A DNA stretch of 64,000 nucleotides from Pseudomonadota bacterium (GCA_049323595.1 JBMOOD010000001.1:104530-168529); one strand, 5' to 3'; numbered from the stretch's first letter, positions 47,861 through 52,627 are shown. Program-made: numbers and translations. The notes: generated by a model from the letters alone, not told the origin.

Positions 47861-48976
47861 TTAGACGTTCATCACCTGGCCAAGCACGCGGGCGGTGTAG
47901 TCCACCAACGGAATGACCCGGGCATAGTTCAGGCGGGCGGGACCGATGACGCCGATCGCGCCCACCACCTTCTGCGAGCCCGTCATATAGGGCGCCGCGA
48001 TCACAGCGGAACCCGAAAGGGAAAAGAGCCGCGTCTCCGCCCCGATGAAGATGCGCACGCCCTCGCCGTCGCGGACCCCGTCCAGGAGCTGGATCAGCTG
48101 CTCCTTCTGCTCCAGGTCCTCGAACAGCGAACGGACCCGTTCCAGGTCCTCCAGCGCCTCGCGGTCCTCCAGGAGGTTGGCGCGGCCGCGGACGATCAGC
48201 GCCCGGTCCTCGCCCTCGCCGCCGCCCCAGGCCGCCAGCCCATCCTCCACTAGGCGCGCGGCGCTGTCGTTGAGCTCGCGGCGCGCGCGGTCCAGCTCGG
48301 CGCGAAGGTCGGTCTTGGCCTCCGCCAGGGTGCGGCCGCGCATCCGGGCGTTCAGGAAGTTGGACGCCTCCTGCAGCGCCGACGGCGTGACGCCGACCGG
48401 CAGGCGGATCAGCCGGTTCTCCACCGTGCCGTCGTCGAAGACCATGATCGCCAGCGTCCGGTCGCCGGAAAGCGAGACGAACTCCACATGGGTGACGCCG
48501 GCGTCCCGCATCGGCGTGACGACCACTCCCGCGCCGCCGGCCAGGCCCGACAGGATCGACGAGGCCTCGTTCAGCGCGTCCTCGTAGTTGCGGCCGTGCG
48601 CCAGGAGGCGGGCCTCGATGGACCGGCGCTCCTCCTCGGCGACGTCGCCCACCTCCAGAAGGCCGTCGACGAACAGCCGCAGACCCGCATGCGTCGGCAG
48701 CCGCCCGGCGCTGACGTGCGGCGCGCCTAGCAGGCCCAGCTGCGTCAGGTCCTGCATGGTGTTGCGGATGGACGCCGGCGACAGCGAGACGCCGCCCTTC
48801 GACAGGGTGCGCGAGCCCACCGGCTCCCCGGTCTCCAGATAGCTTTCCACGATGCGGCGGAAGATGTCGCGGGCGCGTGCGTCCATGTCGGCGAGCGAGG
48901 GCCCGCGGGCGAACATCGATGGTGTCACGGCGTGCGGGGGTCTTTCCTCTGCGGCCATGGACTGGACCTTCTGCAT
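47861..48976 (-). CDS. hrcA: Heat-inducible transcription repressor HrcA (start may lie further downstream)
   Basis: [38 protein letters not shown]. Confidence 0.95.
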
Positions 48977-48980
48977 CTAG

Positions 48981-49007
48981 GATAAGCGCGGGCTTTCCCG
49001 GCGCAAG
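48981..49007 (-). promoter_or_regulatory. RpoH-type promoter for hrcA-grpE
   Basis: Minus strand CTTG-N17-CTTATC, matching the alphaproteobacterial sigma32 consensus. Confidence 0.6.
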
Positions 49008-49031
49008 CCGCCGCCACGTGAGTTCCCGCCC

Positions 49032-49748
49032 ATGCGACCATCCGACCGCGCGCCCGACCTGCTGCGACCCGTGACGCTGGAGACCGGCGTCACCCGCTAC
49101 GCCGAGGGATCCTGCCTGGCGACCTTTGGCCACACCAAGGTGCTGGTGACCGCCAGCCTGGAGGAAGGCGTGCCCGGGTTCCTGCGCGGCAAGGGCCAGG
49201 GCTGGGTCACCGCCGAGTACGGCATGCTGCCCAGAGCCACCCACACCCGCGGCCGGCGCGAGGCCGCCGCCGGCAAGCAGAGCGGCCGCACCCAGGAGAT
49301 CCAGCGCCTGATCGGCCGCTCCATGCGCGCCATCGTCGACCTGAAGGCCCTGGGCGAGCGCCAGATCACCATCGACTGCGACGTGCTGCAGGCCGACGGC
49401 GGCACGCGCACGGCCTCGATCACCGGCGCCTGGGTCGCCCTGCGCCTCGCCACGAAGTACCTGCTGGACGAGGGCGTGATCGCTCAGGACCCGATCCTCG
49501 ACCAGGTGGCGGCGATCAGCTGCGGCATCTTCGCCGGCACGCCGGTGCTGGACCTCGACTACGAGGAGGATTCCAACGCCGAGGCCGACGCCAACTTCGT
49601 GCTCACCGGGACCGGCGACATCGTCGAGGTCCAGGCCACCGGCGAGAAGCGCGGCTTCTCCCAGGCCGAGTTCGACGCCCTGTTCAGCCTCGCCCGCAAG
49701 GGTATCGGCGAGCTCTGCGCCATGCAGCGGACGGCGGCGGGGGGCTGA
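49032..49748 (+). CDS. rph: Ribonuclease PH
   Basis: [37 protein letters not shown]. Confidence 0.97.
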
Positions 49749-49894: not shown

Positions 49895-50791
49895 TCACAC
49901 CTCCTTCAGCACCTCGGCCAGCATCCGCCCCTCGGCGCGGCGGTTCGAGCCGGCGCGCCAGGCGACGACGATCTCGCGCGACGGGTGATCGGCGTCGATT
50001 GGGCGGACCTCCACGTGCGCGCTTCGCGCCAGACCGGCGTTCACCGCCATCTGGGGCAGGAAGCTCACCCCCAGGCCCGAGCTCACCATCTGCACCAGGG
50101 TCGGCAGGGAGGTGGCGGCGAACGGCTCCTCGCCGGAGGCCATCCGCGGCGGGTTCAGCCGGCAGGTGGCCAGGGCGTGCTCGCGCAGGCAGTGGCCGTC
50201 CTCGAGCAGGATCATGTTCTCCCGCTCCAGCGCCTCGGGGGAGGCGGACTTGAACCGCGCCAGCGGGTGATCGGCGGGCAGGGCGGCCATCAGCTCGTCG
50301 TCGGCCACATGTGCCCACTCCAGCCCGCCCACGTCGAACGGCAGCGCGATGAGGGCCGCATCCAGCCGGCCCGCCTTCAGTTCGGCGATCAGCCGGTGCG
50401 TCAGGTCCTCCCGCAGGAACAGGCGCAGCTTCGGAAAGCGCTGTTTCAGCAGCGGCAGGGCGCCCGGCAGCAGGAACGGGGCGATGGTCGGGATCACGCC
50501 CAGGCGAAAGCGACCGGTCAGCGGCTGGCCTACGTTCTTGGCCGCCTCGACCAGCTCCTCGGCCTCGTTGAGGATCACGGTGGCGCGGCGCAGGGCCTCC
50601 TCGCCTATGGGGGTCAGGATGACGCCGGTGCGCGCCCGGTCCACCACCGGCCCGCCGAGCGTCCGCTCCAGTTCCTGGATCCCGGCCGAGAGCGTGGGCT
50701 GGGTGACGTGCGCCGCCTCCGCCGCCTTGCCGAAGGCGCCGTGCTCGGCCAGCAGCTTCAGGTACTGCAGCTGTCGGATGGTGGGCAGCAT
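49895..50791 (-). CDS. oxyR: OxyR-type LysR regulator
   Basis: LLEDGHCLREHALATC (CxxxxxxxxC redox pair), ATSLPTL, GVIPTIAPFLLP. Confidence 0.9.
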   Translation of the reverse strand: MLPTIRQLQYLKLLAEHGAFGKAAEAAHVTQPTLSAGIQELERTLGGPVVDRARTGVILTPIGEEALRRATVILNEAEELVEAAKNVGQPLTGRFRLGVIPTIAPFLLPGALPLLKQRFPKLRLFLREDLTHRLIAELKAGRLDAALIALPFDVGGLEWAHVADDELMAALPADHPLARFKSASPEALERENMILLEDGHCLREHALATCRLNPPRMASGEEPFAATSLPTLVQMVSSGLGVSFLPQMAVNAGLARSAHVEVRPIDADHPSREIVVAWRAGSNRRAEGRMLAEVLKEV

Positions 50792-50828
50792 GCGCCGGAC
50801 TCCACGCCCCCCGCGGGCCGGCCTCTAT

Positions 50829-50865
50829 ATAGGCCCTGTCTATGAAATTTTCAAAAGCAATCGAT
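50829..50865. promoter_or_regulatory. OxyR binding box
   Basis: ATAG-N7-CTAT-N7-TCAA-N7-CGAT versus consensus ATAG-N7-CTAT-N7-ATAG-N7-CTAT. Confidence 0.75.
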
Positions 50866-50893
50866 TGGTCTTTTGAAGTCCGGACGCCTATCT

Positions 50894-51020
50894 CCCCGGC
50901 AAGGCTCGGCGTCCCTCCGGCGCCGCAGTCCCACTGACGGCTGCGTCCGCACACACGCAGCCTCGGTCCTGGCCGGGGGCGCTCCCATCTCTCCCCCCAA
51001 GGGGGCGCCTCCGGCCTTCT
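50894..51020 (+). ncRNA. Candidate OxyR-regulated structured sRNA
   Basis: Four hairpins with C-rich loops, no credible ORF, directly downstream of the OxyR box. Confidence 0.4.
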
Positions 51021-51040
51021 CATCGCGACACACAGCACGC

Positions 51041-51150
51041 CGTCATCCCGGCCGAAGAGCCGGGACCCTGGGGCAATCAAGCGCGCCCTGCATTCTGAAC
51101 CGAGGAGCGCCGGGTTCCTGGATCGGCCTTGCAGGCCGTCCGGGATGACG
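51041..51150. repeat. CGTC-type REP-like palindrome doublet
   Basis: cgtcatcccggccgaagagccgggaccc...ggatcggccttgcaggccgtccgggatgacg. Confidence 0.85.
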
Positions 51151-51175
51151 GCCCGGGGGTTGGGACTTCGCGACC

Positions 51176-52627
51176 CTACTCCAGCGACGCGGCCAGCCGC
51201 GCCACGCCGGCGTCCATGCTTCGCGCCGGGAAGCCGGTGAACCCCAGGAGGAGCCCCTGCCGCGGCGCGGCGTCGTGGTAGAGCGGACTGATCGCCCGGG
51301 CGAGCAAGCCTCGGGCCGCCGCCGCCGCTTCCACGGCCAGGTCCGAGCGGCCGTCCTTCAGGTAGGCGATCAGGTGCATGCCCTGGTCCGGGACGTCGGG
51401 CTCCAGTACGTCGCCCAGGCGCCGCGCCAGGGCCTCGGCGAGGGCGTCGCGCTGGGCCTTGTAGGCGATGCGGCGGCGACGGATGTGCGCGGCGAACTGG
51501 CCGCTTTCCATGAAATCCACCGCGATGGCCTGGGTCAGGCTCGGCGGCTGCCGGTCCGCCAGGCGGCGAAGGGTCGCGAAGGCCTCGGCCAGCGGCCGCG
51601 GCGCCACCAGGTAGCCGAGGCGCAAGCCCGGGAAGAGCGCCTTGTTGAGGGTGCCCACGTAGATCACCCGCTCGCCCCCATCCAGGCCCTGCAGCGACGG
51701 CAGGGGCGCGCCGGCGTAGCGGAACTCCGAGGCGTAGTCGTCCTCCAGGATCCAGGCGCCCGCCGCCCGCGCCCAGGCGATCAGCTCCAGCCGCCGGCCC
51801 ATCGAGAGCGCGACGCCCAGCGGGAACTGGTGCGACGGGGTGACGAAGGCCGCCCGCGCGTTCGGCGCCCGGTCGATCCCGGCCTGGACCACCAGGCCCG
51901 CCCGGTCCACGGGGACCGCGCACAGCCTCGCCCCCGCCGCCGTCAGCGCATGCCAGGTGGAGGCGTAGCCAGGGTCCTCCAGCCACACTTCGTCGCCGGG
52001 CTTCAGCAACAGGCGTACGGCCAGGTCCACCGCATGCTGGGCGCCGGTGGTGACGATCACCTGCTCGGGTTCGCAGACCACCCCGCGGGCGGCGCGCAGG
52101 TAGTCGGCCACGGCCGCGCGCAGCCGGGGATCGCCCGCGGCGTCCGAATAGCCGAAGTGCGCCGGGCCAAGATGGCGCAGCGCGCGGCGGGTCGAGGCCG
52201 ACCAGGCGTCCAGGGCGCGCGCATCCATCAGGGTGCGGCCGTTGGAAAAGGCCTGCGGCTCGGTCGAGATCGGCGGGGCCGGGAAGCCGGCCAGCTCGCG
52301 GGCGCGCGGCGGGAGGGCTGGCGGATCCAGCACCGGCGTCGGCGCCGGCGCGGCGACATCCAGCACCCCGGACAGGTCCTGCGAGACATAGGTGCCCGAG
52401 CCGGTCCGCCCCTCGGCGTAGCCTTCGGCCAGGAGCTGGTCGTAGGCGGCCACCACCGAGGCGCGCGCCACCCCGAGCATCCTCGCCAGGTCACGGCTCG
52501 ACGGCAGCCGTCCGCCCGGCTTGAGCGCGCCGGCGTGGATCGCGGCGCGGACCTGGTCGTAGACCTGCCGGATGACCGGACGCCCCGGCTCGGGGGCGGA
52601 CCAGGGATAGACGTCGGCCCAGCTCAT
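51176..52627 (-). CDS. MocR/GabR family regulator (GntR wHTH plus PLP aminotransferase domain)
   Basis: GRLPSSRDLA, EDPGY, TPSHQFP, EDDYASEF, GTLNKALFPGLRLGY. Confidence 0.93.
   Translation of the reverse strand: MSWADVYPWSAPEPGRPVIRQVYDQVRAAIHAGALKPGGRLPSSRDLARMLGVARASVVAAYDQLLAEGYAEGRTGSGTYVSQDLSGVLDVAAPAPTPVLDPPALPPRARELAGFPAPPISTEPQAFSNGRTLMDARALDAWSASTRRALRHLGPAHFGYSDAAGDPRLRAAVADYLRAARGVVCEPEQVIVTTGAQHAVDLAVRLLLKPGDEVWLEDPGYASTWHALTAAGARLCAVPVDRAGLVVQAGIDRAPNARAAFVTPSHQFPLGVALSMGRRLELIAWARAAGAWILEDDYASEFRYAGAPLPSLQGLDGGERVIYVGTLNKALFPGLRLGYLVAPRPLAEAFATLRRLADRQPPSLTQAIAVDFMESGQFAAHIRRRRIAYKAQRDALAEALARRLGDVLEPDVPDQGMHLIAYLKDGRSDLAVEAAAAARGLLARAISPLYHDAAPRQGLLLGFTGFPARSMDAGVARLAASLE

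Follow-up and report, generated by a model that had tools for sequence, protein, structure and literature searches.

In a Phenylobacterium genome, the region divergent from oxyR holds a candidate small RNA that can be identified with high confidence, from sequence comparison, as the relic of an OxyR-controlled ahpC-ahpD peroxidase operon that has lost both coding sequences, because its elements match those of the operon in related species and ahpC and ahpD are gone from the genome. The predicted non-coding RNA occupies ~120 nt on the plus strand (50900-51020) of the window, the 64,000-nt stretch of DNA that was analysed (GCA_049323595.1, JBMOOD010000001.1:104530-168529); we infer both of its ends, the 5′ end at 6-9 nt past the -10 element and the 3′ end just past the last hairpin. 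The host is a Phenylobacterium species, the genus of all of the closest OxyR relatives in public genomes. We consider it fairly probable that the relic, descended from the ahpCD operon, now functions as an sRNA under OxyR control that is analogous but not homologous to OxyS, and this predicted peroxide-induced regulatory RNA has probably arisen by the route taken by OxyS in E. coli, but independently. A sequence-only reading of the same DNA had already proposed an OxyR-box promoter driving a structured RNA of ~120 nt analogous to OxyS; the comparative data support that proposal, which had missed the origin of the RNA as a stump of ahpC-ahpD. The support comes from the recurrence of promoter and hairpins in 15 species, from covariation, from a bias toward the sense strand and from a conserved footprint that runs from the promoter to the last hairpin.

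The oxyR gene (ORF call, 49895-50791, minus strand) encodes a LysR-type peroxide sensor of 298 amino acids and is transcribed divergently from the candidate. The best NCBIfam match of its product is OxyR (NF008361, 215 bits), at a score below the enterobacterial equivalog cut-off, and the translation retains both redox cysteines in the motif GHCLREHALATC. The OxyR operator (50829-50865) reads ATAG-N7-CTAT-N7-TCAA-N7-CGAT, with tetramers at 50829-50832, 50840-50843, 50851-50854 and 50862-50865; relative to ATAG-N7-CTAT-N7-ATAG-N7-CTAT, two tetramers are perfect and two are degenerate (TCAA and CGAT), with exact 7-nt spacings, and the four-tetramer layout is present in nearly all of the loci displayed, across all three locus states defined below. 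The last tetramer overlaps the -35 element of the divergent promoter, the former ahpC promoter (50865-50893, plus strand), which consists of TTGGTC at 50865-50870, a 17-nt spacer and the -10 element CTATCT at 50888-50893. Each of these operator and promoter elements had been described from the sequence alone, and each is found where that reading placed it. A promoter scan of the candidate with an E. coli-type consensus called nothing; by our own reading, the candidate promoter resembles the Caulobacter sigma-73 consensus, TTGACgS / GCTANAWC.

The statement that no protein gene lies divergent from oxyR also holds. The next gene is a convergent PdxR/MocR-type PLP-dependent regulator (ORF, 51176-52627, minus strand; NCBIfam PdxR, 409 bits against a cut-off of 320), which in operon-bearing relatives sits in synteny just beyond ahpD, and ATG, GTG and TTG occur zero times in 50894-51026. 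The sole ORF crossing the region (50873-51148, 91 aa, TTG start) is rich in Arg, Pro, Ala and Gly, a composition of off-frame type, and a small-protein reading was dropped because the RNA stretch has no start codon.

Folding of the sense strand of 50894-51026 yields three hairpins with a free energy of -75 kcal/mol and a z-score of -5.5, which was reached by 0 of 200 shuffles, and its antisense has a z-score of -1.3. HP1 (50903-50930, plus strand) is the former ahpC 5′-leader hairpin, with arms CGGCG (50907-50911) and CGCCG (50921-50925) and the loop CCUCC (50914-50918). HP2 (50933-50967, plus strand) spans the ahpC stop codon in relatives and has arms GGCTGCGT (50939-50946) and ACGCAGCC (50955-50962) enclosing the loop CCGCACAC (50947-50954). 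HP3 (50971-51016, plus strand) is the former ahpC-ahpD intercistronic hairpin, with arms GGCCGGGGGCGC (50971-50982) and GCGCCTCCGGCC (51005-51016) and a 14-nt loop, AUCUCUCCCCCCAA (50987-51000). The stems are essentially unbroken at 11, 13 and 16 bp, respectively, with one G.U pair in HP3. Directly 3′ of HP3 lies TTCT (51017-51020), the start of a weak pyrimidine tail, UUCUCAUC (51017-51024, plus strand), preceded by the strong 16-bp stem, and a terminator consensus scan of the candidate called none. The hairpins listed in the sequence-only reading agree with this fold in the three strong hairpins, their arms and the TTCT tail; a fourth, cagt/actg, is absent from the minimum-energy fold, in which its bases extend HP1 and HP2. 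The exposure of C-rich loops is likewise reproduced by the fold, with CCUCC in HP1 and the large C-rich loop in HP3. Loops of this type are rare: of 224 strong hairpins in the genome, 6 carry five consecutive C or five consecutive G in the loop; two other strong hairpins with C/G-run loops, at G000 C15:224036-224073 (TCGGGGGGCTTGAGGGAG) and C22:55234-55261 (CTCCCCCA), could be further C-rich-loop RNAs or terminators.

The origin of these elements is apparent from 80 related Phenylobacterium oxyR loci, which together with the window form a comparison set of 81 sources. Three states were distinguished: an operon state in 37 of the 80 loci, a stump state in 14 (15 with the window) and an empty state, with only the operator left, in 29. 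The locus L022, whose OxyR is 90% identical to that of the window, has ahpC and ahpD in the interval from oxyR to the MocR-type gene; NCBIfam recognises its AhpD with a score above the cut-off and gives AhpC as the best match for its peroxiredoxin. This operon begins with the same operator, -35 and -10 elements, followed by a leader hairpin with the loop CCUCCCC, the Shine-Dalgarno sequence AAGGAG and ahpC, and continues with a hairpin spanning the stop codon (loop GCACACC), a hairpin with a long C-rich loop and a U-rich tail, and then ahpD. HP1, HP2 and HP3 correspond to the leader, stop-codon and intercistronic hairpins of L022, and the ahpC leaders of relatives in general place a hairpin, usually with the loop CCUCCCC, at the same distance from the -10 element and ahead of AAGGAG. 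A vestige of ahpC itself persists at 50926-50949 (plus strand), comprising the last ~7 codons and the stop codon (cagtcccactgacggctgcgtcc, compared with gagaccctgaaggccgcgtaa in L022), and in the model-based alignment A4 the window's ACTGACGGCTGCGTCC lines up with the end of ahpC in relatives (CTGAAGGCCGCGTAA in L022). HP2 of the window reads gcgTCCgcacac where L022 has gcgTAAgcacac, and is closer to gcgTCCcacac of L028. A search of the window's genome found no ahpD and no ahpC orthologue, the nearest peroxiredoxin being only 39% identical to AhpC. By these comparisons, each part of the candidate is homologous to a part of the relatives' operon, and ahpC and ahpD have been lost from this genome. 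The reverse order of events, with the stump as the ancestral state, was rejected: the last codons and the stop codon of ahpC lie within HP2, HP3 stands between two genes, and a transition from stump to operon would need two precisely placed insertions.

Variation among the loci extends beyond the three states. Five operon loci (L024, L027, L028, L033 and L037) have an extra hairpin of ~55-90 nt between the ahpC stop codon and HP2, indicating that the HP2-HP3 module can already stand free of coding sequence; in L028 (163-339) this hairpin is flanked by duplicated ctgaaggccgc, with HP2 lacking the stop codon, and it may have come from a small tandem duplication or from an insertion that duplicated its target site. 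Six others (L047, L064, L065, L068, L072 and L077) keep the operon with a different spacer hairpin between ahpC and ahpD that lacks a C-rich loop and is missed by the covariance model, so the module is replaceable even while the operon is kept. A fourth arrangement occurs in Phenylobacterium deserti YIM 73061 (L076, 2356-2868), where an AhpD-like gene 63% identical to AhpD of L022 is directly divergent from oxyR, without ahpC and without any of the hairpins. On the other side of oxyR, rph and hrcA (47861-49748 of the window) are neighbours only here and are absent within 3 kb in the 80 related loci, and the L022 genes on the side of oxyR away from the slot recur in at most one other locus; the neighbourhood of oxyR is thus highly rearranged across the genus.

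HP2 and HP3 were built into a covariance model, R2, which hits 44 of the 81 sources exactly once each, always on the strand divergent from oxyR, and these matches comprise all 15 stump loci, 29 operon loci and none of the empty loci. An earlier model, R1, is single-copy in 40 of 151 Phenylobacterium genomes and elsewhere in the same order gave nothing credible, with two weak matches in L107 and L108. The L108 match was rejected as a terminator unrelated to the candidate, placed after a 188-aa ORF and bearing a C-rich loop of 20 nt (cauccccucccccucccucg on the minus strand); it belongs to another family of the order (L108, 1500-1600) and falls between a 283-aa ORF and the convergent 188-aa ORF, which by eye resemble a uracil-DNA-glycosylase-family protein and a hemerythrin-like protein, respectively.

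The synteny and covariation check upstream of oxyR that had been suggested with the sequence-only reading was run on the 80 related loci, and it reveals a locus conserved in 15 species with covarying hairpins. In the R2 alignment 93.3% of cells pair, compared with ~46% when the partners are slid by 1-3 columns, and compensatory changes occur in 19 of 24 pairs, with a covariation score of 0.49 against 0.17 in shuffles; because the model guided the alignment and the sequences share ancestry, these numbers overstate independence and the shuffle controls are inflated by kinship. HP3 is the best-conserved helix, with 99.2% of cells paired and compensatory changes in 9 of 12 pairs, and HP2 shows such changes in 7 of 7 outer-helix and 2 of 4 inner-helix pairs; the sister loci L042 and L044 differ in HP2 by a compensatory U-A to C-G double change. 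RNAalifold finds HP3 independently on a plain MAFFT alignment (10 of 13 pairs compensatory), and plain MAFFT alignments of the full-length RNA (A1) and the leader hairpin (A5) yield little or nothing with the same program, as differences in stem length shift the alignments out of register. For HP1 the evidence therefore consists of per-sequence folds, which give the same three-hairpin layout in all 15 stump RNAs.

The most serious alternative to a functional RNA is an inert relic, in which ahpCD was deleted recently, the hairpins have not yet decayed and any transcript is functionless noise. The absence of the whole unit from 29 of 81 loci, which indicates that it is dispensable in many species, is in keeping with such a history, as are the apparent relaxation of the U-tail and of the HP1 loop in stump loci, the -10 elements without CTA in 2 of the 15 stump loci, and the lack of a close stump-bearing relative of the window by which the loss could be dated. 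Nevertheless, the pairing in stump loci equals that in operon loci (93.7% and 93.1%, respectively), with compensatory changes in 16 of 24 pairs in the stump loci alone, and the window's own unbroken stems and fold score do not suggest decay. A contrast is provided by a clade composed entirely of stump loci (L040, L053, L056 and L059), in which four-fold degenerate sites of oxyR have diverged to 52-64% identity while HP2 and HP3 remain 81-89% identical. Across this clade the operator, -35 and -10 elements are invariant and the 17-nt spacer is scrambled; HP2 and HP3 are nearly invariant, loops included, and the 3′ limit of the conserved stretch coincides exactly with that of HP3, beyond which the flank has diverged. 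Taken together, these data make the inert relic an unlikely explanation.

A further alternative, which we regard as slightly less likely again, is that the locus acts only as an insulator, with the promoter locked in place by its overlap with the operator, HP3 (with HP2) blocking antisense read-through into the neighbouring gene, and the RNA itself without a role. This would suit the strong conservation of HP3, the U-rich tract that follows it in the operon state in the manner of a leaky intra-operon terminator, and the convergent gene, which ends soon past HP3 in every stump locus (within ~50 nt in most, ~160 nt in the window). The -10 element, however, lies outside the operator and is conserved all the same: at a fixed distance, 35 of 37 operon loci have CTATC and 13 of 15 stump loci have CTA, and the empty loci have no such motif. 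An unwanted transcript would be ended more simply by loss of the -10 element, as has occurred in the empty loci. The loops are also conserved along with the stems, with CACAC or ACACC in the HP2 loop of 25 of 29 operon and 10 of 15 stump loci, and with the HP3 loop containing CUCCCCCC and at least four consecutive C in all 15 stump loci. Finally, decay has affected the very U-tract that termination would require, the U count in the 8 nt past HP3 averaging 2.3 in stump loci and 4.3 in operon loci (Mann-Whitney p = 4e-5, for samples that are not independent).

That the candidate is a DNA-level or protein-binding element unrelated to transcription, for instance one bound by a nucleoid or recombination protein or one belonging to a repeat family, is very improbable, for although a dispersed REP-like inverted repeat adjoins it at ~51035-51165, the candidate itself (50880-51030) is single-copy in its genome by BLAST and covariance model, its compensatory changes keep pairing rather than sequence, and both the G.U pairs and the fold z-scores favour one strand. 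In the stump loci 24 G.U cells would be C.A mismatches on the other strand, and the mean fold z-score is about -4.3 for sense and -2.1 for antisense, with sense better in 14 of 15. A dispersed genomic repeat, which the sequence-only reading had named as its refutation, is also contradicted by the single copy per genome, always beside oxyR. The adjoining inverted repeat (gccgtcatcccggcc ... ggccgtccgggatgacggc, 51035-51165) is large, lies past HP3 and before the MocR-type gene, and has the appearance of a REP/MITE-type element; it is present at this site only in this genome and gives a weak Rfam CC0196 match. Its 3′ half (51107-51160), outside the candidate, has 17 other matches in the genome and more in relatives, and similar elements adjoin the OxyR box directly in L078 and L080.

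The specificity of the matches, the covariation, the pairing in stump loci alone, the strand bias, the contrast in rates and the retention of the promoter argue that selection maintains the promoter and transcript after loss of the coding sequences, and that the loop sequences matter in addition to the stems. As the best module identity of the window to another stump locus is 0.76 and no close stump-bearing relative is present in the set, selection in the window's own genome is deduced by homology. The three hairpins differ in their conservation. The HP1 leader has an identity of 0.47-0.51 among stump loci compared with 0.58-0.61 among operon loci, and its C-rich loop is often lost in the stump state, a pattern that fits a past role as a cis-acting anti-Shine-Dalgarno element for ahpC. 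This lower conservation suggests that HP2-HP3 is the functional core and that HP1 is now only a 5′ cap.

The stump state does not form a single lineage. In the OxyR tree, the stump loci make up no fewer than seven groups with operon loci placed between them, and the starred branches force at least two changes, and a single stump clade is rejected by the AU test (lnL difference 90, p = 0.0013). Both the phylogeny and the test are based on OxyR, one 298-aa protein, because the far side of oxyR is not syntenic across loci, and recombination at the locus could mimic the result. The gap between HP1 and HP2 is only ~0-10 nt in every stump locus. Several lineages thus ended with the same three hairpins and nothing between them, as would be expected from deletional erosion down to selected parts; under the alternative history, a single old origin would mean long maintenance. 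Function is therefore supported by either history.

Erosion of the operon left four parts, namely the operator with the ahpC promoter, HP1, the last ahpC codons within HP2, and HP3, and in the mechanism proposed for the OxyR-dependent sRNA these would constitute a compact transcription unit of ~120 nt. Oxidised OxyR would still fire the promoter as it would for ahpC, and a stable RNA would accumulate under peroxide stress, with HP1, a few bases from the 5′ end, protecting that end and HP3 defining and stabilising the 3′ end. The RNA would most likely act in trans, through pairing of its conserved, single-stranded loops (CUCCCCCC in HP3 and CACAC in HP2) with G-rich or Shine-Dalgarno regions of mRNAs, to which the C-rich loop is complementary. 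In the window's genome, the one in which it was counted, GGGGGGAG occurs 93 times, and in 22 cases an ORF of at least 60 codons begins shortly downstream, a count that we take only as a lead. A pairing between the HP3 loop and a G-run in the oxyR leader was considered and dropped, as the run is not conserved in L026. Given the weaker U-tract and the lack of a consensus terminator, termination and Hfq binding may be poor. A more tentative version of the proposal, to which we give roughly a one-in-three place in our thinking, is that HP2-HP3 was already a trans-acting OxyR-dependent riboregulator inside the ahpC mRNA, as a 3′-end or intercistronic fragment, and was freed more than once upon loss of ahpCD. 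If this version is right, the genus would contain all three stages of the OxyS route, before, after and gone, still segregating; if the RNA is inert, the locus is still a clean case of gene loss leaving structured debris.

Among known RNAs, none of the Rfam families accounts for the candidate. A cmscan of 50000-52000 with E-values up to 10, a check that had been proposed together with the sequence-only reading, returned no family at its gathering score, and the matches to Scr3202, CRISPR-DR21, 6C and CC0196 (E-values of 1.7-9.7) were dismissed as chance-level. The 6C RNA of Actinobacteria (RF01066) is a hairpin with a C-rich loop, from which the family takes its name; it differs from the candidate in phylum, context and regulation, and its match here (20.3 bits against a gathering score of 47, E = 9.7, half of the model covered) is at the level of chance. 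A literature search found no paper reporting an sRNA at this oxyR locus in either Phenylobacterium or Caulobacterales. In the operon state HP3 resembles a leaky intra-operon terminator downstream of ahpC, such as that in the E. coli ahpC-ahpF spacer: it has ahpC on one side and the gene of the reductase partner on the other, and a U-rich tract follows the hairpin, a layout expected for an attenuator that sets ahpC above ahpD. In contrast to such terminators, HP3 outlives both genes, keeps a C-rich loop of 12-18 nt that a terminator does not need, and loses its U-tract.

The CcsR and alpha-r14 'cuckoo' RNAs (CcsR1, RF02791; NfeR1) share with the candidate hairpins that expose C-rich anti-Shine-Dalgarno loops. 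CcsR and NfeR1 are alphaproteobacterial and linked to stress, and the CcsR RNAs are cut from an mRNA 3′ UTR (PMC8034643, PMC10746234). The CcsR nonamer CCUCCUCCC is found exactly in the HP3 loop of only some relatives (L040, L056 and L059). Where CCUCCUCCC would be expected in each loop of a CcsR RNA, the window has CCUCC in HP1, CCGCACAC in HP2 and AUCUCUCCCCCCAA in HP3, the loops to be compared with CcsR being CCUCC and CUCUCCCCCC. The CcsR1 model gives no match in the window and weak, sub-threshold scores in L091 (26.3 bits) and L022 (20.4 bits) against a gathering score of 65.3. The candidate also differs in having an OxyR box in its promoter, in the lack by eye of an RpoHI/HII-type promoter and in the lack of an adjacent DUF1127 gene.

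The closest parallel is OxyS. As shown by Krieger et al. (2022, PMC8825220), it took the place of a peroxiredoxin-glutaredoxin gene that lay divergent from oxyR, and its sequence comes from the final ~65 nt of that coding sequence together with the 3′ UTR and terminator of the gene, by which it remained in the OxyR regulon. Like OxyS (RF00035), the candidate is divergent from oxyR behind a shared OxyR operator, has a length of ~110-120 nt with three hairpins, fills the slot of an OxyR-controlled peroxidase gene and is built from the 3′ end of an mRNA; since the RNA is built from the 3′ end of the mRNA of an OxyR-controlled peroxidase, membership of the OxyR regulon would be inherited in the same way. 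The OxyS model finds no match in 50000-52000 at E-values up to 10, and the two RNAs have no homology in sequence or structure. Their likeness is one of analogy rather than common descent because the parent peroxidases are of different types, the candidate's being an AhpC-type peroxiredoxin partnered with AhpD instead of a peroxiredoxin-glutaredoxin hybrid, and in another bacterial class. Unlike OxyS, the candidate also keeps the 5′-leader hairpin of its parent and has C-rich loops, and its operon, stump and empty states coexist in one genus, where the stump state is not monophyletic on the OxyR tree.

How sRNAs are born and enter existing regulons is an open question; birth from an mRNA has been worked out chiefly for OxyS, and the locus described here would be an independent replicate of an OxyS-type birth in another bacterial class. 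Cultured strains exist both for the stump state (Phenylobacterium sp. J426, VNQ135 and J367) and for the operon state (CCH9-H3), so it can be tested here whether the 3′ fragment was already a regulator before gene loss and whether OxyR control was simply inherited. Besides these strains, the advantages over OxyS are that the parent, product and empty states are all found among close relatives and that each part of the product maps to an element of the parent mRNA.
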